Assembly (NCBI RefSeq): GCF_044324875.1
Contig: NZ_CP172185.1
DNA length: 64,000 bases
Direction: 5' to 3' (one strand)
Source: Escherichia coli
Lineage (GTDB): Bacteria; Pseudomonadota; Gammaproteobacteria; Enterobacterales; Enterobacteriaceae
The notes under the pieces are model-generated. The model had not been told where the DNA came from. It ran no database searches and was given only the letters and a program-made list of their open reading frames with translations. Both the position numbers and the translations under genes were made by a program. This document shows positions 8,846 through 39,042 of the stretch, piece by piece; within the stretch, counting starts at the first letter, position 1; each line of letters starts with the position of its first letter.

Positions 8846-9118
8846 GAGTTCCCCGCGCCAGCGGGGATAAACCGCTTCATCTGTCGGGCTAACTGGACAA
8901 AGAAACGAGTTCCCCGCGCCAGCGGGGATAAACCGTCGGTTTGACATCAAAGAAGCCATCAATCAGGGAGTTCCCCGCGCCAGCGGGGATAAACCGGTCT
9001 GGCCATAGGAACAAAGAAATTTGTCTTTGAGTTCCCCACGTCAGCGGGGATAAACCGGACACAGAGCGCCGCTATAGCGCCTATGCCAAGAGTTCCCCGC
9101 GCCAGCGGGGATAAACCA
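8846..9118 (+). CRISPR. Type I-E CRISPR array, 5 repeats / 4 spacers (29-bp repeat GAGTTCCCCGCGCCAGCGGGGATAAACCG, 32-bp spacers)
   Basis: Repeats start at 8846, 8907, 8968, 9029, 9090 (61-bp period); repeat 4 has two substitutions, repeat 5 ends A instead of G. Confidence 0.97.
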
Positions 9119-9755: not shown

Positions 9756-11234
9756 TTACGCATTCGACCAGCTCTGGATCGAATCTTCATTCCCCAGCTC
9801 ACCATGCATCACTTCATACGATTTTTTCAGGATCACATCAGTGTGTTTGGTTAGGTCTTTGAAAATGCCTTTATTCATCGCGTTGTAGCGTTTGGCGTTG
9901 CTCTCAACAGGCATAAAGATATCTTTCACGCGAACCATTTTGTCGACAGCCGTTGCGTAATCCGGGTATAGCCCCAGACCTACCGCCGTATTAATCGCTG
10001 CCCCCAGGCTTGCACAACCATTAATGGCGTTACGGCGTGCCGGAAGGTTGAACACGTCGGCAAAAATCTGCATAAACAGATCGCTGTTCGAACCGCCGCC
10101 AGTAATGATCACATGCTTTGCAAAGTGATTCATTTCATTACACATATTGTCGTAATTGTTCTTCAGCGTCAGCGCCACGCTTTCCAGTATCGAACGATAT
10201 ATCCATGCGTAATCCATGCTGGAATCAAAGCCAATCATAATCCCGCGTTTGTACGGTTCCCACGGATTGGTCAGCCAGTCCAGCACCGTCATCAGACCAT
10301 TACAGCCTGGCGGCACACAAGAAGCTTTTTTGTTGAGTAAATCTTCCGGTGAAAGATCCTGCGCCCTGGCATCCTGAATTAACGACTCGCCTAGCATGTC
10401 GCGCAGCCAGCTCACCGTCCACATGCCTTTGCGAATACCGTAACCTTCATACAGCAAGGTTTGCGGAATAGAAGACATAATCGGCCAGTACGCTACCGGA
10501 TCTTTCGGCAGTACTTTGCCGTTCATCATCAACGCGATGTAAGTGCCAAGAGAAATTACCGCAGTTTCATCATCCAGTAACCCGGCTCCCAGTGCTTCTA
10601 CCGGTTTATCACTGGTGGTACAAACAACCGGCAGCCCAGCCGGGAAATGTGTCGCCAGCGCGGCTTGAGGAGTGATATGCCCAAGAACAGTGCCCGGCAT
10701 TTGCACATCAAACAGCATATGACGGGGGATATTAAACTTCTCCATGACTGCGGCATCTTCACTCCATGCCCAGGTCTTATAATCCACCGGCCACTGACCA
10801 AAATAGTTGGCGATATTGTCTTTAAACTCGCCGGTTAAGCGATGCGTCAGATAACCCGAAAAAGAGGTGACATATGCCACGTCAGGATTCGTATGTTCGT
10901 AAGGGCGTGTAACGCGTGCATCCTGCCAGCTAATCAACGGCGCAGCTGGCGTGCCATCGGCTTTCAATAACGCACGGCAGCAACGGATGGATCCCAGACC
11001 AATACCGACAATATCTTCTTTATTTCCGGCAAACTGACTCATCAAATCGTGACCGGCAAAGCATAATGATGCCCATAAATCGTCGTCAGGATGTTCTGCG
11101 GTATCGGCATCTGGCGTGTGCATCGGCTGCAATAAGCCTTTGCCTTCGCAAACCACATTACCTTCCAGATCGTACATCACCACTTTTGTGCTCTGACTTC
11201 CACCATCAATCCCTATGATGTATTTTTTCGACAT
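9756..11234 (-). CDS. ygcE: FGGY-family carbohydrate kinase
   Basis: 492 aa; N-terminal IGIDGGSQSTK typical of FGGY kinases. Confidence 0.88.
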   Translation of the reverse strand: MSKKYIIGIDGGSQSTKVVMYDLEGNVVCEGKGLLQPMHTPDADTAEHPDDDLWASLCFAGHDLMSQFAGNKEDIVGIGLGSIRCCRALLKADGTPAAPLISWQDARVTRPYEHTNPDVAYVTSFSGYLTHRLTGEFKDNIANYFGQWPVDYKTWAWSEDAAVMEKFNIPRHMLFDVQMPGTVLGHITPQAALATHFPAGLPVVCTTSDKPVEALGAGLLDDETAVISLGTYIALMMNGKVLPKDPVAYWPIMSSIPQTLLYEGYGIRKGMWTVSWLRDMLGESLIQDARAQDLSPEDLLNKKASCVPPGCNGLMTVLDWLTNPWEPYKRGIMIGFDSSMDYAWIYRSILESVALTLKNNYDNMCNEMNHFAKHVIITGGGSNSDLFMQIFADVFNLPARRNAINGCASLGAAINTAVGLGLYPDYATAVDKMVRVKDIFMPVESNAKRYNAMNKGIFKDLTKHTDVILKKSYEVMHGELGNEDSIQSWSNA

Positions 11235-11260
11235 GATTTTTCTCCTGTAATTTTCTGGAC

Positions 11261-12538
11261 TTACTTGCTGCTAGCCATAGCAGGGGCGCTATCAGCAGTA
11301 CGAATTTTTTGGAACAGCAAAAAGGTAAAGACGATCACCATGGCAAGCGCCGCCATGCCCATCAGCCACATATTGCGGTAGGCTTCTGCAGCGGGCAGGG
11401 TGTCTTGCCAGTAGCCGATAATCGGGTAAACGAAGACATCCGGCAGGAATCCAATCACCGAACAAATACCTACCGTGGTGCCCATAATGTAAGACGGTGT
11501 TCTCGCTTCGCCAGGGCAGGCCCAGTACAGCCCGCGTGAGGCGTAACAGGTGAATCCCAGCAGTAAAATCAGGCCAATCCCCATCGCGACCGATTGCGGG
11601 TTAGAGTTCGTGACGAGCAGGGCAGTTAACGCCAGCAAGCCGAGTACGGAAAGGATTTGGATCACGCGGGTAGGGGATTTCACTTTGCTGTAGGTGGTGA
11701 TAATGCCACCAAGTGGGCCGCACAGTGCGCGGAAGATTTTGTTGATCACAATCCCCATGTAGCTCGCCGCCACCAGCGACATGCCGTACATTTCGGTCAG
11801 ATAGTTGGTGGAGTAACTCAGAATGGCGTAGATGGTGAAGACACCAAAAATCACCATGCTGCAATACCAGGTGGTGCTGATGCGCAAAACAGCCAGGATG
11901 TCGCTAAGCTGGAATGACTGTTTTTCTTCGTTATTGGTATTGCACAGGTTGTTGTTATCGCTAACAAAAAACCAACACAAAATGCCCAGCAGAATGTAAA
12001 CCACACTATAGATAATAATGACCGTTTTCAGGCTGGCGCTGTCATCCGGTGCAAAGCGAGAAAAGACCCACATGGTAAACACCGCCAGCGACATTACACC
12101 GACGCCGCGCAGCCCTTCCATCCAGCCCATAATTTTCCCTTGCTCGCTATGATCGCCCAGCAACGAGGCGGCTTTAATCGACACCGACCACAGCATTAAA
12201 ATAGTGGTTATCGCAAAGGCGACCTGAATACAGAGCATTACCCACAGCGGTGGATATGTTGCCATTAACAGACCCAGTAATCCGGTAATGATCATCGCGG
12301 AAGTAATCATTTTGCGGTGTGAAAATTTATCGGCAATAACGCCGCTGGGGGCATAAAGAATAATAGCCGCAATACCAAAGGTACTCATTATTAAACCTAT
12401 CTCGGTATTGCTGAATCCCATAAATTTCGCCATGGGAATTTGATAAATATAACGTAAATAAGCCAGGTCGAAACTAACGCCGCCGCTAAAACTAATTATC
12501 GCGAGGGTTATCCAACGGCGATATGAGTTGTGTTGCAT
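11261..12538 (-). CDS. yqcE: MFS transporter
   Basis: 425 aa, about 12 predicted TM helices. Confidence 0.85.
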   Translation of the reverse strand: MQHNSYRRWITLAIISFSGGVSFDLAYLRYIYQIPMAKFMGFSNTEIGLIMSTFGIAAIILYAPSGVIADKFSHRKMITSAMIITGLLGLLMATYPPLWVMLCIQVAFAITTILMLWSVSIKAASLLGDHSEQGKIMGWMEGLRGVGVMSLAVFTMWVFSRFAPDDSASLKTVIIIYSVVYILLGILCWFFVSDNNNLCNTNNEEKQSFQLSDILAVLRISTTWYCSMVIFGVFTIYAILSYSTNYLTEMYGMSLVAASYMGIVINKIFRALCGPLGGIITTYSKVKSPTRVIQILSVLGLLALTALLVTNSNPQSVAMGIGLILLLGFTCYASRGLYWACPGEARTPSYIMGTTVGICSVIGFLPDVFVYPIIGYWQDTLPAAEAYRNMWLMGMAALAMVIVFTFLLFQKIRTADSAPAMASSK

Positions 12539-25550: not shown

Positions 25551-25815
25551 AATATCGTACCGCTTAATAAACGTCTCTGTCTGAAAAGATGGGGGCGTTT
25601 TTATTTTGCGAGCAGCATTCCTGATTTTAAACGTGAACGCCGCTGGAAGAATTATCAAGTATAGAATGGCGTTGGGTGCTTGAGGCTGTCTGGCGTTAAG
25701 CATTCGCGAGGTTCCAGATGGACAAAAGCCCCAGGCGATATTTCTATCAACCTGAGGCCAGCGTTCGAACCTAAGCAATTCGAATGTTAGTCTCTTCTTT
25801 GCAGGGAGGCAAGAC

Positions 25816-25968
25816 ATGCTGACAAAATATGCCCTTGTGGCAATCATCGTACTGTGTTGTACAGTACTGGGATTCACGCTGATGGTAGGCGACTCGTTGT
25901 GTGAGTTGAGTATCAGAGAACGTGGTATGGAGTTTAAGGCAGTTCTCGCTTACGAATCGAAGAAGTAG
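25816..25968 (+). CDS. Hok/Gef-family type I toxin (50 aa)
   Basis: Not in ORF track (<60 aa). ATG 25816 preceded by GGGAGG; product [50 protein letters not shown] has the Hok architecture (single TM then DSLCEL..); followed by ACGCGGGG-loop-CCCCGCGT hairpin (25974..25995). Confidence 0.75.
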
Positions 25969-26319
25969 CCACCACGCGGGGGTAAAACCCCGCGTATTGA
26001 ATTGTGATGGTTTGGTCTCCTGCACCCTTTTTTAATTTATATTGTTTATGTGAATATTATGCCTATGTTTATTATTCATATATATTACGGATGAAAATTA
26101 TTTGATTATTCATAATGTGCAAAATGGCATCTGAATCGATCGCAGTTTGGCATTCGAATCGATCATGATTTGGCATCCATCTCCGATCACAGTTTGGCAT
26201 CACAATCGATCACGATTTGGCATGCTTCCGATCATTGATTGGCATCCTGCCAGTCACTCCGGGAATTAACTCTTTTCACCACAGTCTCCATTGCCGTGTT
26301 TAAACCAGTGGAGACGTCA

Positions 26320-27885
26320 ATGTCCAGAAAGAGAAAATCCAGGAGCACTATGGAAACCTGTTTTAAGATCCTTCAGCTCAAGTTCGACAAGAAGCTGACT
26401 AACCGTTGTATCGGACTGACGTTACACATCAGCGCCTCAACCGTTTTTGAGGTTCTTGCCCGCTTCAAAGCCTCTTCTCTGTCATGGCCATTACCTGCTG
26501 ATATATCCCATGACACGCTGGAGAAACTCATTTTTCCGCCCAAAGACACCTTTGCATCAGAGCTTGTAATGCCTGACATGTTGTACTTCGATACGGAAAT
26601 GAGAAAACCAGGTGTGACGCGGCAACTGTTGTGGATGGAATACAAGGCACAGGCGGGTAACAAAGCGATGGGATACTCGCACTTCTGCCGTTGCTACCGG
26701 GAGTGGAAAAAAACGCGACGTCTCTCCATGCGCCAGGAGCATCGTGCCGGCGAAAAGCTTTTTATCGACTTCTGTGGTCCTACGGTTCCTGTTATTAATC
26801 CGGACACCGGTGAGATACGCCGCGTGGCAATCTTCGTGGCCGTAATGGGGGCGTCCAACTATACCTACGTTGAAGCGTGCGAAGGTCAGGACATGATGTC
26901 ATGGTTAAATGCCCACAGCCGTTGCCTGACCTTCCTGGGCGGCGTACCGAAGCTGCTCATCCCCGATAACCTCAGAAGCGCAGTGAAAAAGGCCGATCGA
27001 TATGAGCCTGTCATCAACGACAGTTATCAGGCACTGGCTGAGCACTATGGCACGGTTATCATCCCGGCCCGACCACGCAAACCTAAAGATAAACCAAAAG
27101 CAGAAAACGGCGTCCTCATCGTTGAACGATGGCTTCTTGCCCGCATCCGTAATGAAACCTTCCACACGCTCAGGGCGCTGAATGCGCGCCTTAGGGAGTT
27201 ACTGACAGACATGAATAACCGGCCAATGAAGGGGTACGGCAATCAAACCCGTGCAGAACGCTTCCGCATACTGGATGCGCCAGCACTCTCTCCGCTGCCT
27301 CTGGCACCTTATGAATACACGGAATACAAAGCTGTGAAGGTTGGCCCTGACTACCACGTTGAATATGCCCGTCACTGGTACTCCGTTCCACACGAACTGG
27401 TCGGTCAGCGTCTGTCACTGAAGGCGGGGCAGTCGGTGGTACAGCTCTGGCACAAGGGGCAGTGTGTGGCGCAACATCCGCGCAGCACACATGAATATAA
27501 ACACACAACCAATCCGCTTCACATGCCAGAGCGCCACCGGCAGCACGGGACATGGACACCGGAACGCCTGATCGAGCAGGGAAAACGTACGGGCCCGTCC
27601 ACAGGCCGGGTGGTTGAATCCATGCTGAAGGCAAAACCCCATCCGGAACTGGCTTATCGTGCAGTTCTGGGGCTGCTGGCACTTCAGAAAAAATACGGCC
27701 CGGAACGGCTGGAAAAGGCCTGTTACGTTGCCCTGCACTATAACGCCCCTGACAGACGCTTTATCGACAATCTGCTGCGTCACCATCGGGAGAACCTGGA
27801 GCTTCCATTATCCCGCCAGGGCGAACAACATCCGGCATATGCTTCAGAGCATGAAAACCTGCGTGGTCCGGGCTACTACCACTGA
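26320..27885 (+). CDS. istA: IS21-family transposase IstA
   Basis: ORF 26239..27885; start set at ATG 26320 (MSRKRK..); N-terminal HTH region and DDE-type core. Confidence 0.85.
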   Translation: MSRKRKSRSTMETCFKILQLKFDKKLTNRCIGLTLHISASTVFEVLARFKASSLSWPLPADISHDTLEKLIFPPKDTFASELVMPDMLYFDTEMRKPGVTRQLLWMEYKAQAGNKAMGYSHFCRCYREWKKTRRLSMRQEHRAGEKLFIDFCGPTVPVINPDTGEIRRVAIFVAVMGASNYTYVEACEGQDMMSWLNAHSRCLTFLGGVPKLLIPDNLRSAVKKADRYEPVINDSYQALAEHYGTVIIPARPRKPKDKPKAENGVLIVERWLLARIRNETFHTLRALNARLRELLTDMNNRPMKGYGNQTRAERFRILDAPALSPLPLAPYEYTEYKAVKVGPDYHVEYARHWYSVPHELVGQRLSLKAGQSVVQLWHKGQCVAQHPRSTHEYKHTTNPLHMPERHRQHGTWTPERLIEQGKRTGPSTGRVVESMLKAKPHPELAYRAVLGLLALQKKYGPERLEKACYVALHYNAPDRRFIDNLLRHHRENLELPLSRQGEQHPAYASEHENLRGPGYYH

Positions 27886-27901
27886 CAGAAGGAACAACAG
27901 T

Positions 27902-28657
27902 ATGAGTGATAACCTGTTAAACAAACTGACCCAACTGAAACTCCCGGCGATGGCCGGGAGCCTGATACGGCAGCGGGAAACGCCTCAGACCTACGACGAA
28001 CTGTCGTTCGAGGAAAGGCTGACGCTGCTGGTTGATGACGAGCTTCTGAGCAGGGAAAACAGCCGTGTGGCACGGTTGAGAAAAAATGCCGGCCTGAAAT
28101 ACCAGGCAACACCGGAAGGGCTGCGCTATCCGGCCTCAAGAGGTCTGCGGGCTGAACAGATGAGAGAACTGCTGAACGGCCACTACATAACCCACAGGAA
28201 AAACCTGCTGATAACCGGTCCGACAGGATGTGGCAAGAGCTGGATAGCCAATGCGCTGGGCGAACAGGCATGTCGACAGAAACACAGCGTCCGGTACTGT
28301 AGAACCGGGCGATTACTGGAACAACTGGCTCAGGGACGTGTTGATGGCAGCTGGCTGAAATATCTGAAACAGTTGCAAAAAATACAGGTTCTAATCCTGG
28401 ACGATCTGGGGCTGGAACAGTTAAGTAACGCCCAGTGTAATGACCTTCTGGAGCTCATAGAGGATCGTTACGGACAAAGCAGCACGATAGTGGTAAGCCA
28501 GTTCCCGGTAGATAAATGGCATGGTCTGATGGAGAACCCAACAACAGCAGATGCCATCCTGGACAGACTGGTACATAACTCACACCGAGTGGTCCTTCAG
28601 GGAGAGTCACTGAGGAAAAATCCCCCGGTAGTGGAAAGCAGCGAAAAAACGCGTTAA
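27902..28657 (+). CDS. istB: IS21-family ATP-binding helper protein IstB
   Basis: ORF 27659..28657; start set at ATG 27902 (MSDNLLNKLTQL); Walker A GPTGCGKS, Walker B ILDDLG. Confidence 0.88.
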   Translation: MSDNLLNKLTQLKLPAMAGSLIRQRETPQTYDELSFEERLTLLVDDELLSRENSRVARLRKNAGLKYQATPEGLRYPASRGLRAEQMRELLNGHYITHRKNLLITGPTGCGKSWIANALGEQACRQKHSVRYCRTGRLLEQLAQGRVDGSWLKYLKQLQKIQVLILDDLGLEQLSNAQCNDLLELIEDRYGQSSTIVVSQFPVDKWHGLMENPTTADAILDRLVHNSHRVVLQGESLRKNPPVVESSEKTR

Positions 28658-28808
28658 AAAGCGGTAGAAAAAGTTAAGTTCCCGGTTGATCGAATGGATG
28701 CGAATCGCTGATCGGACTTCGATGCCAATCCGTGATCGAATAGAGCGGAATACGCACATAATGTAAATATTTTATTGAACGATATATATCACAGATAATT
28801 TTTAATAT

Positions 28809-31508
28809 ATGCGTAAATATCCTTTAAGTTTACTGAAGGATAAAAATATTGTGACTTTTTTTGATTTCTGGGGAAAAACCCGACGCGGCGAGAAAGACGG
28901 GGGCGACGACTATCACCTTCTTTGCTGGCATTCGCTGGATGTAGCCGCGATGGGCTATTTAATGGTTAAAAGCAATTGCTTCGGGCTGACTGACTATTTT
29001 CGTCAACTAGGTTTCGCTGATACGGAGCAGGCAGCACAATTTTTCGCCTGGCTATTGTGCTGGCACGATACTGGAAAATTTGCCCGCTCTTTTCAGCAAC
29101 TTTACCTGCACCCACAACTCAAGGTTCCGGAAGGCGCAAGAAAGAATTACGAAAAGATCTCTCATTCAACGCTGGGCTACTGGCTGTGGCATCATTATTT
29201 AAGTGAATACGAAGAATTGCTTCCTTCATCTTCACTCTCTCCGCGCAAACTTAAACGGGTGATGGAGATGTGGATGCCCATAACTACCGGGCATCATGGT
29301 CGCCCGCCTGACCGTATTGATGAACTGGATAATTTTCTGCCTGAAGACAAAGCTGCCGCGCGAGATTTTCTTCTTGAAATCAAACCACTGTTTCCGCTCA
29401 TAGAGATCCCCGCATTCTGGGATGATGATGAGGGCATTGAACTTATAAAACACCTTTCCTGGTATATCTCTGCAACCGTCGTGCTCGCAGACTGGACGGG
29501 TTCGTCAACGCGATTTTTTCCACGCGTCGCACACCCAATGGATATTAAAGGTTACTGGCAGAAAACTTTAGTTCAGGCTCAAAACGCCTTAACCGTCTTT
29601 CCTCTAAAAGCAAAAGTCGCGCCTTTCACCGGAATTAATACGCTGTTTCCTTTTATTGAGAATCCGACACCGTTACAGCAAAAGGTGCTGGATCTGGATA
29701 TCAGCCAGCCAGGGCCACAGTTATTTATTCTGGAAGATGTGACTGGCGCAGGTAAAACGGAAGCGGCGCTTATCCTGGCGCACAGGTTGATGGCTGCGGG
29801 TAAAGCGCAGGGTTTGTTTTTTGGCCTGCCAACAATGGCAACGGCCAATGCCATGTACGATCGACTGGTCAAAACCTGGCTTGCTTTCTATTCGCCAGAG
29901 TCCCGCCCCAGCCTGGTGCTGGCACACAGTGCCCGAACATTAATGGACCGCTTTAATGAATCACTCTGGTCCGGTGATTTAGTCGGGTCAGAAGAACCGG
30001 ATGAACAAACGTTCAGTCAGGGATGTGCGGCCTGGTTTGCCGACAGTAACAAGAAGGCGCTACTGGCTGAAATTGGCGTCGGCACGCTGGATCAGGCGAT
30101 GATGGCTGTGATGCCGTTCAAACATAATAATCTGCGGCTTCTGGGACTGAGTAACAAAATCCTGCTGGCTGATGAGATCCATGCCTGTGACGCTTACATG
30201 TCATGCATTCTTGAAGGGCTGATCGAGCGGCAGGCGCGTGGCGGAAACAGCGTCATTTTGCTTTCTGCCACGTTATCTCAACAGCAGTGCGACAAACTCG
30301 TTGCTGCCTTTGCGCGTGGTACAGAGGGCCAGCAAGAAGCTCCGTTCCTGGAAAAGGATGATTACCCCTGGCTGACGCACGTTACGAAATCCGATGTGCA
30401 TTCACACCGGGTAGCGACGCGCAAAGACGTTGAGCGTAGCGTGAGCGTGGGTTGGCTTCATAGCGAACAAGAATGTATTGCGCGTATCGAATCGGCAGTA
30501 AGTCAGGGGAAATGCATCGCCTGGATCCGGAATTCTGTCGATGACGCTATTAAGGTTTATCGTCAGTTGCTTGCCCGCGGCGTCATTCCTGCTTCCAGCC
30601 TTTCTCTGTTTCATAGCCGCTTTGCTTTTAGCGATCGCCAGCGAATTGAAACGGAAACGCTGGCACGCTTCGGTAAAGAAGATAGCTCACAGCGTGCCGG
30701 AAAAGTCCTCATTTGTACTCAGGTCTTAGAGTCGAGCGTTGATTGCGATATGGACGAAATGATTTCCGACCTGGCCCCTGTTGATTTGCTGATCCAGCGA
30801 GCGGGGCGATTACAGCGGCATATCCGCGATATTAATGGTCAGTTAAAGCGTGACGGAAAAGACGAGCGTTCCCCTCCTGAATTGCTGATTCTGGCCCCCG
30901 TCTGGGACGACGCTCCAGGTGACGAATGGTTCGGCAGTGCCATGCGTAACAGTGCATATGTCTATCCCGATCATGGACGAATCTGGCTGACGCAGCGTGT
31001 ACTGCGTGAGCAAGGCGCTATTCAAATGCCACACGCAGCCCGCCTTCTTATTGAATCAGTCTACGGTGAGGACGTGGTAATGCCGGAAGGATTTGCCCGC
31101 AGCGAGCAGGAGCAAGTGGGCAAATATTACTGCGATCGCGCAATGGCTAAAAAGTTTGTGCTGAACTTCAGGCCTGGCTATGCCGCCAATATCAACGATT
31201 ACCTTCCGGAAAAGCTGTCGACACGTCTGGCGGAGGAGTCTGTTTCCCTGTGGCTGGCTACCTGTATTGCCAGTGTGGTGAAGCCTTATGCCAACGGTGC
31301 TCACGCATGGGAAATGAGCGTTGTCAGAGTGCGTCGAAGCTGGTGGAAAAAACATCGGGATGAGTTTTCTTTACTGGAAGGGGAAGCGTTCAGGCAGTGG
31401 TGCATTGAACAGCGGAAAGATCCGGAGATGGCAAACGTGATTTTAGTTACCGATGACGAAAGTTGCGGGTATTCGGCTATGGAAGGATTGACTGGCAAGG
31501 TTGGTTGA
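28809..31508 (+). CDS. cas3: Cas3 nuclease/helicase (type I-E)
   Basis: 899 aa; HD nuclease motifs (LLCWHSLDVAA, WHDTGKF), DEAH-type helicase (GAGKTEAA, LADEIHA); immediately precedes cse1. Confidence 0.93.
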   Translation: MRKYPLSLLKDKNIVTFFDFWGKTRRGEKDGGDDYHLLCWHSLDVAAMGYLMVKSNCFGLTDYFRQLGFADTEQAAQFFAWLLCWHDTGKFARSFQQLYLHPQLKVPEGARKNYEKISHSTLGYWLWHHYLSEYEELLPSSSLSPRKLKRVMEMWMPITTGHHGRPPDRIDELDNFLPEDKAAARDFLLEIKPLFPLIEIPAFWDDDEGIELIKHLSWYISATVVLADWTGSSTRFFPRVAHPMDIKGYWQKTLVQAQNALTVFPLKAKVAPFTGINTLFPFIENPTPLQQKVLDLDISQPGPQLFILEDVTGAGKTEAALILAHRLMAAGKAQGLFFGLPTMATANAMYDRLVKTWLAFYSPESRPSLVLAHSARTLMDRFNESLWSGDLVGSEEPDEQTFSQGCAAWFADSNKKALLAEIGVGTLDQAMMAVMPFKHNNLRLLGLSNKILLADEIHACDAYMSCILEGLIERQARGGNSVILLSATLSQQQCDKLVAAFARGTEGQQEAPFLEKDDYPWLTHVTKSDVHSHRVATRKDVERSVSVGWLHSEQECIARIESAVSQGKCIAWIRNSVDDAIKVYRQLLARGVIPASSLSLFHSRFAFSDRQRIETETLARFGKEDSSQRAGKVLICTQVLESSVDCDMDEMISDLAPVDLLIQRAGRLQRHIRDINGQLKRDGKDERSPPELLILAPVWDDAPGDEWFGSAMRNSAYVYPDHGRIWLTQRVLREQGAIQMPHAARLLIESVYGEDVVMPEGFARSEQEQVGKYYCDRAMAKKFVLNFRPGYAANINDYLPEKLSTRLAEESVSLWLATCIASVVKPYANGAHAWEMSVVRVRRSWWKKHRDEFSLLEGEAFRQWCIEQRKDPEMANVILVTDDESCGYSAMEGLTGKVG

Positions 31509-31605
31509 GATGCCTGCGACAGGGCTCTCTGAATAGTTGATACACCGAAAAGGATGGAATGATGGACAACCGACCTGGGATGGTCTTTTTTACGAGAGGA
31601 TGCGT

Positions 31606-33168
31606 ATGAACTCGTTTTCACTTCTGACAACCCCGTGGTTGCCCGTTCGTTATAAAGACGGAACGACAGGCAAACTGGCGCCTGTCGATCTGGCGGATGA
31701 AAATGTTGTCGATATTGCTGCGCCACGGGCAGATCTCCAGGGAGCGGCATGGCAGTTTTTGCTGGGGCTACTACAAACCAGCTTTGCGCCAAAAGATCAT
31801 CGTCGTTGGGATGATATCTGGGAAGACGGACTGGAATCTGAAAAGCTACGGGAAGCATTGCTGTCCTTAGAACACGCTTTCCAGTTTGGGCCAGATTCCC
31901 CTTCATTTATGCAGGATTTCGAGGCGCTCACAGGAGATAAAGTTCAGGTCGCTTCGCTACTGCCTGAGATTCCCGGCGCTCAAACAACGAAGTTTAATAA
32001 AGACCACTTTATCAAGCGTGGTGTAACGGAATACCTGTGCCCACATTGTTCTGCGTTAGCTCTGTTCTCCCTACAGTTAAATGCGCCGTCAGGTGGTAAA
32101 GGCTACCGCACCGGTTTACGCGGCGGTGGGCCGATGACCACTCTGATTGAATTACAGGAATATCAGGGCAATCAACAAACGCCCTTGTGGCGCAAACTGT
32201 GGCTCAATGTGATGCCGCAGGACGAAGCCGACTTACCGCTACCCAAAAAATTTGACGATCTGGTTTTCCCCTGGCTTGGCCCGACGCGTACCAGCGAACT
32301 GGCCGGTGCGGTGGTAACCGATGATCAGGTTAATAAACTCCAGGCGTACTGGGGAATGCCGCGGCGTATTCGTATTGATTTTAATACCACGACAGTCGGC
32401 AACTGCGATATTTGCGGCGAGCAGAACGACGCGCTCCTGAGCCTGATGACGACCAAAAATTACGGCGCGAATTATGCCATGTGGCAGCATCCCTTAACGC
32501 CTTACCGTGTACCCCTTAAAGAGGGCGGCGAGTTTTACTCGGTCAAACCACAACCAGGCGGTTTAATCTGGCGCGACTGGTTAGGCCTTATCGAAACGGG
32601 TAAATCAGAAAACAATACGGAACTTCCCGCGCTGGTGGTGAAACTCTTTAATGCCAGCAGTCTCAAGCAGGCAAAAGTGGGCCTGTGGGGATTTGGTTAT
32701 GATTTTGACAACATGAAAGCGCGCTGTTGGTACGAACACCATTTTCCGCTGCTGCTCGATAAAAAAGAAGGCCAGATACCGAAGCTGCGGCTGGCTGCGC
32801 AAACGGCTTCACGGATTCTGAGTCTGTTACGGAGTGCATTGAAAGAAGCGTGGTTCTCCGATCCAAAAGGTGCACGGGGTGATTTCAGTTTTGTGGATAT
32901 CGACTTCTGGAACAAAACTCAGCATCGCTTCCTGAGGTTAGTGCGCCACATTGAAGAAGGTCAGGATGCGGATGAATTACTCAGCAAATGGCAAAAGGAA
33001 ATTTGGTTATTCGCGCGTCAGGATTTTGACGAGCGTGTCTTCACCAATCCATATGAGCCCGTTGATTTGAAACGCGTCATGACCGCGCGCAAGAAATATT
33101 TTACAACATCGGCGGAGAAGCAAAATGCTAAAGCCGCCAGGGAGAAAAAGCAGGAGGCTGCTGAATGA
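31606..33168 (+). CDS. casA: Cascade large subunit Cse1/CasA
   Basis: ORF 31537..33168; start set at ATG 31606 (MNSFSLLTTPWLPVR), 6 nt after GAGG; size and position fit Cse1. Confidence 0.85.
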   Translation: MNSFSLLTTPWLPVRYKDGTTGKLAPVDLADENVVDIAAPRADLQGAAWQFLLGLLQTSFAPKDHRRWDDIWEDGLESEKLREALLSLEHAFQFGPDSPSFMQDFEALTGDKVQVASLLPEIPGAQTTKFNKDHFIKRGVTEYLCPHCSALALFSLQLNAPSGGKGYRTGLRGGGPMTTLIELQEYQGNQQTPLWRKLWLNVMPQDEADLPLPKKFDDLVFPWLGPTRTSELAGAVVTDDQVNKLQAYWGMPRRIRIDFNTTTVGNCDICGEQNDALLSLMTTKNYGANYAMWQHPLTPYRVPLKEGGEFYSVKPQPGGLIWRDWLGLIETGKSENNTELPALVVKLFNASSLKQAKVGLWGFGYDFDNMKARCWYEHHFPLLLDKKEGQIPKLRLAAQTASRILSLLRSALKEAWFSDPKGARGDFSFVDIDFWNKTQHRFLRLVRHIEEGQDADELLSKWQKEIWLFARQDFDERVFTNPYEPVDLKRVMTARKKYFTTSAEKQNAKAAREKKQEAAE

Positions 33169-33701
33169 GTATTGTAAAAGAGGAGCACAAAGCCACGCTG
33201 CGTAAATGGCACGAAGAGTTGCAGGAAAAACGCGGCAATCGTGCCAGTCTGCGGCGTAGCACAACGGTTAATGATGTTTGTCTGTCAGAAGGGTTTCGTT
33301 CTCTGCTGATGCAGACCCACACTTTGTGGAAAATTGAAGCACAAGAGTGGCGTTTTACCGCACTGGCGCTGGTCGCCGCAGTTAGCGCCAATGTTAAAGC
33401 TATTGATGAACGGCAGCCTTTTGCCGCGCAGCTGGCGGCGGTAATGTCGGAGGGGCGTTTTACTCGCCTGTCGGCAGTAAAAACGCCTGATGATTTACTG
33501 CGTCAGTTACGTCGCGCGGTCAAATTATTAAATGGTTCCGTCAATCTTATCTCTTTGGCAGAAGATATTTTCCGCTGGTGCCAGGAGAGCGACGACCTGC
33601 TCAATCATCACCGCCGCCAGCAGCGGCCAACAGAATTTATCCGTATCCGCTGGGCGCTGGAATATTACCAGGCTGGCGACGCCGATAACGAACAAAATTA
33701 A
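33165..33701 (+). CDS. casB: Cascade small subunit Cse2/CasB
   Basis: 178 aa; start overlaps casA stop (ATGA). Confidence 0.85.
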   Translation: MSIVKEEHKATLRKWHEELQEKRGNRASLRRSTTVNDVCLSEGFRSLLMQTHTLWKIEAQEWRFTALALVAAVSANVKAIDERQPFAAQLAAVMSEGRFTRLSAVKTPDDLLRQLRRAVKLLNGSVNLISLAEDIFRWCQESDDLLNHHRRQQRPTEFIRIRWALEYYQAGDADNEQN

Positions 33702-33715
33702 TAAAGGACTATCTC

Positions 33716-34771
33716 ATGACGACATTTATTCAGCTTCATTTGTTAACCGCTTACCCTGCTGCCAACCTTAACCGTGATGACACCGGTGCGCCAAAAACTG
33801 TGGTACTGGGTGGAGCAACGCGTCTGCGCGTTTCCTCACAAAGTCTGAAACGTGCGTGGCGCACTTCTGCACTTTTTGAACAGGCACTGGCGGGCCATAT
33901 TGGTATTCGCAGTGGGCGTATTGCGCGTGAGGCGGCAACTATCCTGATTGAGAAAGGCATCGAAGAGAAAAAAGCCATCGAATGGGCGGCAAAAATTGCG
34001 GATTATCTTGGGAAAGCTAAAAACGACAAAAAACCAAAAGATCCGCTCACTAACGCCGAAACTGAACAGCTAGTCCATATCAGCCCGGCAGAATTTGACG
34101 CCGTAAAAGCGCTGGCCCATCAACTGGCCGAAGAAAAGCGCGCGCCAAAAGAGGAAGATCTCGCTTTGTTACGTAAAGATCGCATGGCGGTAGATATCGC
34201 TATGTTTGGTCGTATGCTGGCGAATAAACCCGAATTTAATGTTGAAGCCGCCTGCCAGGTCGCGCATGCATTTGGTGTCAGTGAAACGATTGTCGAAGAT
34301 GATTTTTTCACCGCCGTTGATGATTTGCGCCAGGCTTCTGAAGATGCCGGTGCCGGGCATCTTGGTGAAACCGGATTCGGTTCTGCGCTGTTCTACACCT
34401 ATATCTGCATCGATAAAGATCTGCTGGTCGAAAACCTCGGCGGTGACGAAGCGTTAGCTAATCAGACCTTGCGCGCCTTTACGGAAGCCGCACTTAAAGT
34501 CTCCCCAACCGGCAAACAGAACAGCTTTGCCAGCCGTGCCTACGCCTCCTGGGCGCTGGCAGAAAAAGGCACTGAACAACCACGCTCTCTGGCGGCGGCT
34601 TTCTATGAACCCATTAATGGCACCCGGCAGTTAGATGTGGCGGTGCAGCGTATTACAACGCTTCGCGAAAATATGAATACGGTCTATGAACAGAAGACCG
34701 AATGCGCAAGCTTTGACGTGATGAACAAACAGGGAAGCATGAAGGACGTGCTGGACTTTATCTGCGCGTAA
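33716..34771 (+). CDS. casC: Cascade backbone Cas7e/CasC
   Basis: 351 aa; position and size in the type I-E operon. Confidence 0.88.
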   Translation: MTTFIQLHLLTAYPAANLNRDDTGAPKTVVLGGATRLRVSSQSLKRAWRTSALFEQALAGHIGIRSGRIAREAATILIEKGIEEKKAIEWAAKIADYLGKAKNDKKPKDPLTNAETEQLVHISPAEFDAVKALAHQLAEEKRAPKEEDLALLRKDRMAVDIAMFGRMLANKPEFNVEAACQVAHAFGVSETIVEDDFFTAVDDLRQASEDAGAGHLGETGFGSALFYTYICIDKDLLVENLGGDEALANQTLRAFTEAALKVSPTGKQNSFASRAYASWALAEKGTEQPRSLAAAFYEPINGTRQLDVAVQRITTLRENMNTVYEQKTECASFDVMNKQGSMKDVLDFICA

Positions 34772-34781
34772 GGGGCGGCTA

Positions 34782-35528
34782 ATGAGCCAATATTTGATTT
34801 TTCAGCTTCATGGGCCAATGGCATCCTGGGGCGTCGATGCCCCCGGCGAAGTGCGTCATACCCATGAACTGCCTTCGCGCTCAGCATTGCTGGGGCTGCT
34901 GGCTGCCGGGGTAGGGATTCGGCGTGATGATACCGAACGATTAAACGCGTTTAACCGCCACTATTCACTGGTGGTTTGCGCCAGCCGTAACCCGCGCTGG
35001 GCACGGGATTATCACACGGTCCAGATGCCAAAAGAGGTGCGTAAAGCGCGTTATTTCAGCCGTCGCGAAGAGTTGAGCGCCCCTGATCTTCTGAGCGCGA
35101 TTATCTCCCGGCGCGACTACTACACCGATGCCTGGTGGATGGTGGCGGTGGCAACAACCCCCGATGCGCCTTACAGGCTTGAACAGTTGCAGGACGGTTT
35201 ACGTCATCCGGTTTTTCCGCTTTATCTGGGGCGAAAAAGTCATCCGCTGGCGTTACCACTTGCGCCGTTACTGCTCGAAGGCAACGCGTCTGATGTCTTA
35301 CGTAACGCATACCAACAGTATCAGGATAGTTTCCGCGAACTGAAAGTCTCACTCCCGAAACTTCAGGATGAATGCTGGTGGGAAGGGGAACACGACGGCC
35401 TGGTCGCGAGCAAAATATTACGTCGCCGGGATGTTCCTTTAAATCGTCAGCAGTGGCTGTTTGGGGAACGCACCATCAATCAGGGGCCGTGGCTCAGCAA
35501 GGAGGAACCATGTACCTCTCAAGAATAA
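34782..35528 (+). CDS. casD: Cascade Cas5e/CasD
   Basis: 248 aa; position and size in the type I-E operon. Confidence 0.85.
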   Translation: MSQYLIFQLHGPMASWGVDAPGEVRHTHELPSRSALLGLLAAGVGIRRDDTERLNAFNRHYSLVVCASRNPRWARDYHTVQMPKEVRKARYFSRREELSAPDLLSAIISRRDYYTDAWWMVAVATTPDAPYRLEQLQDGLRHPVFPLYLGRKSHPLALPLAPLLLEGNASDVLRNAYQQYQDSFRELKVSLPKLQDECWWEGEHDGLVASKILRRRDVPLNRQQWLFGERTINQGPWLSKEEPCTSQE

Positions 35529-36156
35529 CCTTACATACCGGCCAGCTTTTGCCTGCGCAGTTGCTGCATTTGGTGGATCGCGGTGAATATGTAATGCATC
35601 AGTGGCTGTGGGATCTTTTTCCTGGCGGCAAAGAAAGGCAATTTCTTTATCGTCGGGAAGAACTCCAGGGGGCGTTTCGCTTTTTTGTCCTGTCGCAGGA
35701 ACGCCCGGCGGAAAGTGATATTTTCACCATCGAATGCCGACCATTTGCGCCAGAGTTGCGTACCGGACAATCCCTTTGTTTCAACCTGCGGGCGAATCCA
35801 ACAATTTGTAAAGCGGGCAAACGCCACGACTTGCTGATGGAGGCGAAACGGCAGGTGAGGGGGCAGGTGGAAGGAAGTGATGTCTGGTTGCATCAACAAC
35901 AGGCGGCGCTGGACTGGCTGGCAGCGCAGGGGGAAAGAAGCGGTTTTACACTACTGGATACCTCGGTCGATGCCTACCGACAACAGCAACTGCGGCGGGA
36001 AAACTCCCGGCAACTGATCCAGTTCAGTAGCGTGGATTATACGGGGATGCTTACGGTCACCGATCCTGGGTTATTTCTGCAACGTCTCAGTCAGGGGTAT
36101 GGCAAAAGCCGGGCGTTCGGTTGTGGTCTGATGCTGATCAAACCCGGAGCAGAGGC

Positions 36157-36160
<4 letters not shown>
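35510..36160 (+). CDS. casE: Cas6e/CasE pre-crRNA endoribonuclease
   Basis: ORF 35372..36160; start set at ATG 35510 (MYLSRITL) after AGGAGG; overlaps casD end. Confidence 0.88.
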
Positions 36161-37370
<1,210 letters not shown>

Positions 37371-37466
37371 GTTAGACGTTCTTTAAAAATAAGGAAATGT
37401 TTGAATTTAGTTGGTAGATTGTTGATGTGGAATAAATTTGTTTAAAAACAGATATGTATGCTTAGT
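37371..37466 (+). promoter_or_regulatory. CRISPR leader for cas-adjacent array
   Basis: AT-rich 96 bp between cas2 stop and first repeat; contains AGTTGGTAGATTGT at 37409..37422. Confidence 0.75.
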
Positions 37467-37983
37467 GTGTTCCCCGCGCCAGCGGGGATAAACCGCTTTT
37501 GTTTCTGATTTCTACGCCTGTGGGTAAGTGTTCCCCGCGCCAGCGGGGATAAACCGGAGCAACTACTCGCAGCACAACAGGCAGGTAGGTGTTCCCCGCG
37601 CCAGCGGGGATAAACCGTTTTCTCTAATTACAGTGATTTTTCAAAATCCGTGTTCCCCGCGCCAGCGGGGATAAACCGCGATTCAAAAATAAAATGACGA
37701 CGGAGGAGGCGTGTTCCCCGCGCCAGCGGGGATAAACCGCCGTCGAAGTGACCATGCTCTTTCATTGTGATGTGTTCCCCGCGCCAGCGGGGATAAACCG
37801 AACACAGCGTAAAACCGTCGCAGCCATGCCGAGAGTTCCCCGCGCCAGTGGGGATAAACCGATTGGTCGGTTATGCATCCTGCTAACCAGATTGTGTTCC
37901 CCGCACCAGCGGGGATAAACCGTAATATTAGACTAATGTTTTTTTGTTGAGTTCGTGTTCCCCCGCCACTGCGGTAGAACTCC
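37467..37983 (+). CRISPR. Type I-E CRISPR array, 9 repeats / 8 spacers (repeat GTGTTCCCCGCGCCAGCGGGGATAAACCG; terminal repeat degenerate)
   Basis: Repeats start at 37467, 37528, 37589, 37650, 37711, 37772, 37833, 37894, 37955 (61-bp period); repeats 7 and 8 carry point changes; repeat 9 is GTGTTCCCCCGCCACTGCGGTAGAACTCC. Confidence 0.97.
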
Positions 37984-38004: not shown

Positions 38005-39042
38005 TCAAGACGCCTTCGCCAGCTCCTTCACCAGCGGTAGCATTATCCGCATAACATCACGGCAGCGACGTTCTATTCTTCCTGGAAGTGCCTTATCAAT
38101 ATGTTGTTGATTATCCAGTCTTACGTCATGCCAGCTATTTCCCGCAGGGAATGCAGCTGTTTTTGCGCGTTGCTGATAACCATCCTTATTCCCAAGATTC
38201 CAATTTGTTGCTTCTACCGAAAGTACGGCAATACCGGCTTTGTCGAAAACTTCGGCGTCATTACAACAGCCAGTACCCTTCGGATAATTTTTATTCAAAC
38301 CCGGATTGGTCGTTGCGGCAATTCCATGACTACGCGCAATTGCCAGTGCCCTGTCGCGCGTTAATTTCCTTACTGCTTCAGGGGTTTTTACACCACTGTT
38401 GAAATACAATTTATCGCCAACAATTAAGTTATCGAGATTAATCACCAGCAGCGTATTTTTCTTTTCGGTGTCACTCATCCGCTTGAGTAAATTCTCAGCT
38501 CCTAATTTCCCTTCCTCTTCACCACTGGTCGCCACAAATCGAATACCATACTCGGTAGGCGTATTTTTCAGGCGTTCTGCCAGTTCCAGCATGACACCTA
38601 AACCTGCGGCGTTATCATCCATTCCTTGTAACGTCAGTCCGCCGAGATTGGCATCGGCGTCAGCATCGCTCAGCGGGGCGTAAGTATCCAGATGCGCCAT
38701 AATGATGATCTGCTGCGGCGCTTTGCCTTCATGAGCGGCAATCACCGTACTTCCCGTCACGTTATGCCAGCTCTTGCGATTATCGCGGGCGGTATAAATA
38801 TACCGACTATTAAATGTCCGAATATCACTGCGATAACCCATTTGCTGAAACTGTTGGCGAATATAATCGGCAGATAACATTTCTGCAGGAGTTCCGGTCA
38901 TGCGTCCCGGAAAGAAAGTAGCAATATGTCGTGCCTGGGTATTAGCAAAATCGCCAGGTTTAGGTGACGAGGCGTGTACGGGGAGAATAAAGCATACGCC
39001 GAGCGCCAGGGCAGCGGTACGGTGGCGCAATGCGGAAAACAT
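38005..39042 (-). CDS. iap: Alkaline phosphatase isozyme conversion aminopeptidase (M28 family)
   Basis: 345 aa with signal peptide; position flanking the CRISPR array. Confidence 0.92.
   Translation of the reverse strand: MFSALRHRTAALALGVCFILPVHASSPKPGDFANTQARHIATFFPGRMTGTPAEMLSADYIRQQFQQMGYRSDIRTFNSRYIYTARDNRKSWHNVTGSTVIAAHEGKAPQQIIIMAHLDTYAPLSDADADANLGGLTLQGMDDNAAGLGVMLELAERLKNTPTEYGIRFVATSGEEEGKLGAENLLKRMSDTEKKNTLLVINLDNLIVGDKLYFNSGVKTPEAVRKLTRDRALAIARSHGIAATTNPGLNKNYPKGTGCCNDAEVFDKAGIAVLSVEATNWNLGNKDGYQQRAKTAAFPAGNSWHDVRLDNQQHIDKALPGRIERRCRDVMRIMLPLVKELAKAS

Follow-up and report, generated by a model that had tools for sequence, protein, structure and literature searches.

The repeats that depart from the consensus in the CRISPR array at 37467-37983 very probably mark the leader-distal, oldest end of a chromosomal type I-E CRISPR1 array in a cas-E1 strain, their heterogeneity being a normal by-product of array growth and inheritance. 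The repeat pattern is real and was correctly described in the initial annotation of this DNA; it is also ordinary, with documented precedents in E. coli and in CRISPR arrays generally. The window, i.e., the whole stretch of 64,000 nucleotides analysed here, is identified by sequence comparison as Escherichia coli chromosome carrying cas-E1 type I-E genes, a CRISPR1 array and iap. The array is framed by the following features:

28809..31508, + strand: cas3 (type I-E, cas-E1 variant), above the cut-offs of the NCBIfam Cas3 core and HD domain models
31606..35528, + strand: casA(cse1)-casB(cse2)-cas7-cas5, Cascade genes, four NCBIfam equivalog models above cut-off
35510..36160, + strand: cas6e (casE), pre-crRNA endoribonuclease recognising the repeat hairpin, TIGR01907 casE_Cse3
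36157..37370, + strand: cas1e-cas2e, adaptation genes, TIGR03638 and TIGR01873 above cut-off
37371..37466, + strand: AT-rich leader between cas2 and repeat 1, 96 nt, 74% A+T, adjoining the identical repeats 1-6
38005..39042, - strand: iap, ORF of 345 aa, convergent with and downstream of the array

The eight Cas proteins encoded at 28809-37370 match NCBIfam type I-E models above cut-off and their genes are intact. The operon is complete, including cas6e, cas1 and cas2, with the AT-rich leader on the cas side of the array, and it shares 99.5% identity with annotated cas operons of E. coli; the lengths of the casA, casB, cas7 and cas5 genes equal those in the RefSeq annotation of strain 7/2. Cas6e is full length (216 aa) and scores 287.8 bits against TIGR01907 casE_Cse3, for a cut-off of 45.2. 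Cas2 has 97 aa, as in the non-K-12 strains whose gene set was named cas-E1 by Almendros et al. (PMC3903273), the cas2 of a K-12-like strain being 285 nt long, and the K-12-specific NCBIfam equivalogs stay below cut-off for the Cas proteins of the window. Beyond the array, iap-cysDN shares 99.3% identity with the annotated E. coli segment.

Upstream of the operon, a hok/sok toxin-antitoxin locus, recognised by its sok antitoxin RNA (25674-25831; Rfam RF01794, 111.7 bits), has cysH on one side and the cas region on the other, an arrangement also annotated in other E. coli. An IS21-family element (26125-28760) separates it from cas3, which starts at 28809. The element harbors an IstA-like ORF with Mu-transposase C-terminal and rve domains (26239-27885), an IstB-like ATPase (27659-28657) and, at its left end, a block of 23-nt tandem repeats (26125-26246). 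It is taken to be an insertion just upstream of cas3 because the hok-cas3 gap is only ~195 nt in strain 7/2, and it might change cas3 expression.

The array itself consists of nine 29-nt direct repeats (R1 to R9) with a 61-nt period and eight unique 32-nt spacers (S1 to S8) at 37467-37983, as seen in the raw sequence and in repeat searches, which is the layout of a type I-E array (~29-nt direct repeats, ~32-nt unique spacers, regular spacing):

37467..37800, + strand: repeats 1-6 and spacers 1-5, six exact repeat copies at 61-nt spacing
37833..37861, + strand: repeat 7 variant (T2A, C17T), canonical hairpin kept
37894..37922, + strand: repeat 8 variant (G12A, first tetraloop base), hairpin kept
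37923..37954, + strand: spacer 8 (oldest, 22% GC, T7 run), anchor spacer of a rare lineage, in only 8 of 5426 genomes
37955..37983, + strand: repeat 9, degenerate terminal repeat, canonical stem probability 0.00

R1 to R6 (starts 37467, 37528, 37589, 37650, 37711 and 37772) all read GTGTTCCCCGCGCCAGCGGGGATAAACCG, so that their reported identity is borne out base for base by the sequence and the repeat searches. R7 (start 37833) is GAGTTCCCCGCGCCAGTGGGGATAAACCG, R8 (start 37894) is GTGTTCCCCGCACCAGCGGGGATAAACCG and R9 (start 37955) is GTGTTCCCCCGCCACTGCGGTAGAACTCC, exactly as the initial annotation had described their differences; it was also right to regard the divergent repeats as the oldest, leader-distal ones. 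The three variants are exactly the last three of the nine repeats, a placement with a chance of 1/84 = 0.012, or of 1/28 for the other two variants when the terminal repeat is excluded. A search for the repeat pattern with up to 3 mismatches gave 8 matches in the array, versus 0 expected from 100 shuffles. R9 was undetected by an ungapped repeat search even with 9 substitutions tolerated and becomes alignable to the consensus once gaps are allowed: positions 1-9 are identical, indels occur mid-repeat, and 4 of the last 8 nt agree, the divergence thus being strongest at the 3' end. In Rfam, no CRISPR-repeat family was matched, and the window at gathering threshold and the array at an E-value threshold gave chance matches only.

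A second, cas-distant array is present at 8846-9118, with five GAG-type repeats and four 32-nt spacers, and has the same leader-distal polarity as the main array. Its repeat 4 has lost a stem pair through G10A and also has C13T, and its terminal repeat 5 ends with A instead of G. In the main array, an alternative hairpin (37481-37497) can be drawn between the 3' arm of R1 and the first bases of S1, followed by the T-rich start of S1. Such terminator-like sites occur at chance frequency (1 found, 1.2 expected), and the scan gave none at the distal end, by which R9 or S8 was rejected as an intrinsic terminator.

The consensus repeat is predicted to form, at -15.2 kcal/mol, a stem of 7 bp (positions 5-11 against 16-22) closed by a 4-nt loop (12-15), as has been reported for the 3' handle of type I-E (PMC5965381). 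R1 to R8 all take this predicted fold, ....(((((((....)))))))......., and have the 8-nt 5'-handle sequence downstream of it; R9 has neither. In R7, T2A lies outside the hairpin and C17T lies in the 3' arm, where it turns the G10-C17 pair into a G-U wobble within the same 7-bp stem (-13.2 kcal/mol, versus -15.2 for the perfect repeat), and R8 folds at -14.4 kcal/mol with its stem unchanged. When the whole pre-crRNA was folded by partition function, the mean probability of the seven canonical pairs was 0.93 for R7, 0.96 for R8 and 0.00 for R9, with 0.46-0.98 among the perfect repeats R1 to R6; energies computed with the canonical structure imposed on repeats that have non-standard pairs were left out. 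R7 and R8 moreover retain ATAAACCG, which codes for the 5' handle of the next crRNA, where the corresponding end of R9 is AGAACTCC. R9 would form an alternative hairpin of 4 bp plus 4 bp (CCGC/GCGG and GUUC/GAAC) at -10.0 kcal/mol. The initial annotation had placed the mutations in the stem recognised by Cas6e and proposed folding each repeat as a check: this placement holds for the wobble-compensated C17T of R7 and for R9, but not for the tetraloop change of R8 or for T2A of R7, and R9 alone is without the Cas6e hairpin.

These folds bear on the view, put forward with the initial annotation, that stem substitutions progressively disable processing and leave the S6, S7 and S8 crRNAs all poorly made. 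The loss of the canonical stem in R9 speaks for it, as do the 2 kcal/mol that C17T costs the stem of R7, the stem-breaking G10A in repeat 4 of the second array (whose fold reaches only -9.7 kcal/mol) and the suggestion that lower expression of promoter-distal crRNAs may be general (discussion in PMC4499155). Yet we consider this view unlikely: the change in R8 is in the loop and that in R7 preserves the helix, both repeats fold like perfect ones alone and in context, and both keep the 5'-handle sequence. In addition, the 5' stem arm shows zero substitutions among 274 sampled repeat-plus-spacer units, the terminal repeats of other species have their substitutions concentrated at positions 24-29 and in the loop and not in the stem, and the 3' handle is largely dispensable for Cascade loading in vitro (PMC4288178). 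A general processing failure of the oldest crRNAs is therefore weakly supported, and poor processing would be expected at most at R9, i.e., at the 3' end of the S8 crRNA, because R7 and R8 keep both hairpin and handle sequence and R9 keeps neither.

From the thermodynamic folds, normal cleavage is predicted at R7 and R8, with normal production of the S6 and S7 crRNAs. The S8 crRNA would receive a normal 5' handle through cleavage of R8 and would be without a 3' end defined by Cas6e, and R9 is predicted to be unable to give an extraneous crRNA from the iap flank. The undefined 3' end may lower the function of the S8 crRNA and not abolish it, because most of the 3' handle can be dispensed with in Cascade loading, where the 5' handle is essential and sequence-specific (PMC4288178), and because cleavage by Cas6e is dispensable where crRNA ends are otherwise set (PMC4499155). 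The type I-E system of E. coli is normally silenced by H-NS (PMC5965381).

The last three repeats differ in their distribution among strains. The segment from the third base of R9 into iap is matched, for the most part at 95-99% identity, in 3523 of the 5426 complete E. coli genomes, and R9 is identical at 27 of 29 positions to the commonest degenerate terminal repeat of the species. Because of this identity and of the conservation of the iap flank, R9 is read as the species-wide degenerate terminal repeat, a fixed relic and not a product of local decay, in line with the report that most strains have the same degenerated repeat and spacer at the iap end (Almendros et al., PMC3903273). The R8 variant (G12A) was likewise inherited with its spacer, since R8 and S8 are found identical in 8 other genomes among the 5426. 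S8 stands in the place of the universal anchor spacer GRCGCACTGGATGCGATGATGGAYATCACTTR, which accompanies the degenerate repeat in 2689 of the 5426 complete genomes and precedes it at the end of 45 of 48 tabulated arrays; a strain without the anchor spacer that about half of complete E. coli genomes carry is mildly unusual, and this is the only such point in the array.

Two strains, 4621 and TUM14771 (1563-1652 and 1560-1649 of the respective loci), resemble the window in having the identical R8 and S8 at the iap end in a cas-E1 context, and differ from it in every other spacer and in a 27-nt terminal repeat, GTGTTCCCCGCGCCAGCGGGGAACTCC, whose hairpin is intact, unlike that of R9. The history of R9 within the S8 lineage appears to be complicated by this intact-hairpin form in relatives. 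A similar array end, GTGTTCCCCGCGCCAGCGGGGATGTCCCA, is present in another Escherichia genome. A contig labelled 'MAG: Bacillota bacterium' harbors an array of E. coli type, with the degenerate terminal repeat of E. coli (GAGTTCCCCGCCCCTGCGGTAGAACACC) at its end, and is probably Escherichia contamination in the bin.

The two changes of R7 are private to this array among those sampled. Its C17T is unique among the 274 distinct units sampled, and S6 and S7 are absent from all other E. coli arrays in the 5426 complete genomes. Its GAG start is the repeat type of the second array and of K-12-type arrays, and its changes could come from point mutation or from recombination with a GAG-type array; a sequence error could also explain them but is less likely. 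That R7 was imported and not decayed, a GAG-type repeat having recombined with a flanking spacer from the second array or from a K-12-type array, would agree with the GAG start of all five repeats of the second array and of the leader-proximal repeats of cas-E2 arrays, with the GTG start of every main-array repeat except R7, and with the documented recombination among E. coli arrays (PMC4524480; PMC3903273). We nevertheless find the import doubtful, as neither adjoining spacer recurs in another E. coli array, C17T is absent from every sampled GAG repeat, and a single T-to-A change accounts for the GAG start equally well.

The same polarity is seen in the population. In 45 distinct E. coli arrays (42 loci retrieved from metagenomes with an iap-flank pattern, plus RefSeq examples), the repeat differs from the modal repeat of its array in 71% of cases beside the terminal repeat, in ~20% at ranks 2-4 from that end and in 2% at rank 8 or beyond, with 0-3% variants at leader ranks 1-4, although these counts are not independent events, many arrays sharing ancestral units. 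Variants account for 44 of the 274 distinct repeat-plus-spacer units; the loop allele C13T is dominant, the 5' stem arm is unchanged, and the distinct substitutions are spread fairly evenly across stem, loop and handle. An excess of loop variants (72/103 cells) was considered as a sign of purifying selection and withdrawn, since it largely reflects one inherited allele, C13T, and the distinct substitutions are even. Among other Enterobacterales, a consensus repeat scan of species-representative genomes yielded 49 arrays built on the same repeat, in which the share of variants from the terminal repeat inward is 82%, 41%, 35%, 22% and 7%. Where their terminal repeats could be aligned ungapped, substitutions are concentrated at positions 24-29 and in the loop. 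The degenerate repeat itself, sought as an exact pattern in species-representative genomes, gave no match. For type I-E arrays, 28.6 mutations per 1000 nt have been reported in terminal repeats versus 5.3 in internal ones (PMC12839519), and the leader-distal concentration of variants is already published (Touchon & Rocha 2010; Almendros 2014; Mitrofanov 2026).

Strain 7/2 displays array growth directly at the other end of its array (11159-11736 of its locus), where R1 to R7 have C27T and the older repeats keep the canonical sequence, the outcome predicted when the first repeat is the template of every new one. A mutation of the first repeat has thus spread into every later repeat. C27T sits inside the 5'-handle sequence (ATAAATCG) and could touch all recent crRNAs of that strain.

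Array growth and inheritance would account for the pattern in four steps. According to established knowledge, Cas1-Cas2 puts each new spacer at the leader and copies the first repeat, and R1 to R6 would be identical because they are recent copies of one template. Older units are never re-copied and are inherited vertically with the substitutions that they already carry, as the strain comparisons show for R8, whose G12A travels with S8. The same comparisons show R9 to be a relic fixed across E. coli, with no decay in this strain. Finally, following published models, distal variants may persist as lower repeat identity would lead to less loss by misalignment between repeats (PMC11472070, PMC12839519), and the terminal repeat would degenerate first in its last 8 nt, which have no downstream spacer to serve (PMC2886076); mutation of the last repeat may reduce deletion of the last spacer (PMC11472070).

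The fixation of R9 could alternatively reflect selection, a degenerate terminal repeat without hairpin and handle blocking an extraneous crRNA from the iap flank that would compete for Cascade and, through its lack of homology, protecting the anchor spacer. R9 has neither a cleavable hairpin nor the handle (AGAACTCC versus ATAAACCG), the 5' handle is required by Cascade in a sequence-specific manner (PMC4288178), suppression of extraneous crRNA by a mutated extra repeat is documented in type II-C (PMC12080349), mutation of the last repeat has been tied to fewer deletions of the last spacer (PMC11472070, PMC12839519), and positions 24-29 are those first lost in the terminal repeats of other species. 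On the other hand, R9 is conserved about as well as the neighbouring iap, the 95-99% identity being what neutral descent within a species would give; the variants of the terminal repeat show uncompensated differences at positions 2, 3, 10 and 13-14; and the lineage of the window lost the universal anchor spacer anyway. In the literature, no test of this idea was found for type I-E. Maintenance by selection is accordingly possible but on the unlikely side, and the fuller proposal, in which the E. coli terminal repeat including R9 is a selected array stop that shields the anchor unit and blocks extraneous crRNA at the sacrifice of the last spacer, is distinctly less probable. If it were true, the rare S8 lineage would be a natural comparison, having S8 in place of the universal anchor and relatives with a restored-hairpin terminal repeat.

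S8 and R9 could also be viewed as a CreR/CreA-like degenerate mini-CRISPR, whose RNA would guide Cascade to repress a cas promoter. As described for CreR, which has been reported for the type I-E system of Salmonella (bioRxiv 10.1101/2023.03.10.532045), a spacer-like segment lies here between an intact 5'-handle donor (R8) and a degenerate second repeat. But reported CreR lies in a cas intergenic region and has 15 consecutive nt in common with a target adjoining an AAG PAM, whereas S8-R9 lies at the end of the array and has no partial target in a cas promoter: the longest exact match of S8 to 27800-31700 (upstream region of cas3 and cas3-casA intergenic region) is 9 nt, which is chance level and short of the ~11-15 consecutive nt with a PAM in a cas promoter by which such RNAs are recognised, and its best ungapped match in the whole window, 20/32, is far from the cas genes. 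Most E. coli moreover have a different spacer before the degenerate repeat. We therefore reject a CreR-like role as extremely improbable, and inheritance of S8 and R9 as the oldest part of an ordinary array remains the preferred reading.

The initial annotation had found no recognisable target for any spacer, which sequence searches showed to be wrong for S7 and S1. The spacers with matches are:

37496..37527, + strand: spacer 1 (newest), protospacer in a prophage integrase gene
37679..37710, + strand: spacer 4, exact match inside CRISPR arrays of 27 complete E. coli genomes
37862..37893, + strand: spacer 7, protospacer in SSU5-like phage-plasmids

S1 matches at 33/33 positions, including the repeat-derived G, a tyrosine recombinase gene adjoining ttcA in E. 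coli STEC384 and STEC379, with an upstream PAM ATG. S7 matches at 31/32 positions Klebsiella phage ST13-OXA48phi12.3 and ~110-kb Klebsiella plasmids, the sole mismatch being at position 11 and the PAM again ATG, and at 29-30/32 positions SSU5 and its E. coli relatives; the protospacer is present in 12 phage records, and the plasmid search gave 747 records, all matches listed being to S7. AAG and ATG are consensus interference PAMs (PMC6568314), and the non-K-12 variant acquires spacers at the motif CWT, the complement of AWG (PMC3737337), so that both S7 and S1 have the AWG-flanked protospacers of spacers derived from mobile elements. BLAST of the eight spacers against phages and plasmids gave targets for S7 only, under a low-complexity filter that may mask the AT-rich S3 and S8, and S8 and S6 gave nothing against IMG/VR with every sixth base free; for spacers other than S7 and S1, no target was thus found in phages, plasmids or (S6, S8) IMG/VR.

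The pattern has little importance beyond correct annotation, in which it marks the orientation of the array and its oldest, phylogenetically informative end. Its main use here lies in the corrections that it brings: two of the three repeats described as decayed should, from their predicted folds, still work, the terminal repeat is a species-wide relic, and two spacers have targets in mobile elements.

The closest known system is the CRISPR-I (CRISPR2.1) array beside iap in E. coli K-12, which has the same cas2-leader-array-iap order and the same 29-nt repeat. It also has the same polarity, its last three repeats being variant (C13T+C14T, G18A and C13T) and followed by a homologous degenerate terminal repeat, GAATTCCCCCGCCCCTGCGGTAGAACTCC, from which R9 departs at a few positions. 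The window differs from it in having cas-E1 genes and leader instead of cas-E2, repeats that start with GTG instead of GAG, entirely different spacers, and S8 in place of the universal GGCGCACTGG... anchor. More broadly, it resembles arrays in general (Touchon & Rocha 2010, PMC2886076; Mitrofanov et al. 2026, PMC12839519), in which the terminal repeat is the most mutated, its distal neighbours are enriched in variants and the leader-proximal repeats are uniform. In other Enterobacterales with the same repeat, it is mostly positions 24-29 of the terminal repeat that are lost, the hairpin being retained, whereas in the E. coli form, R9 included, the canonical hairpin is gone as well, via small indels.
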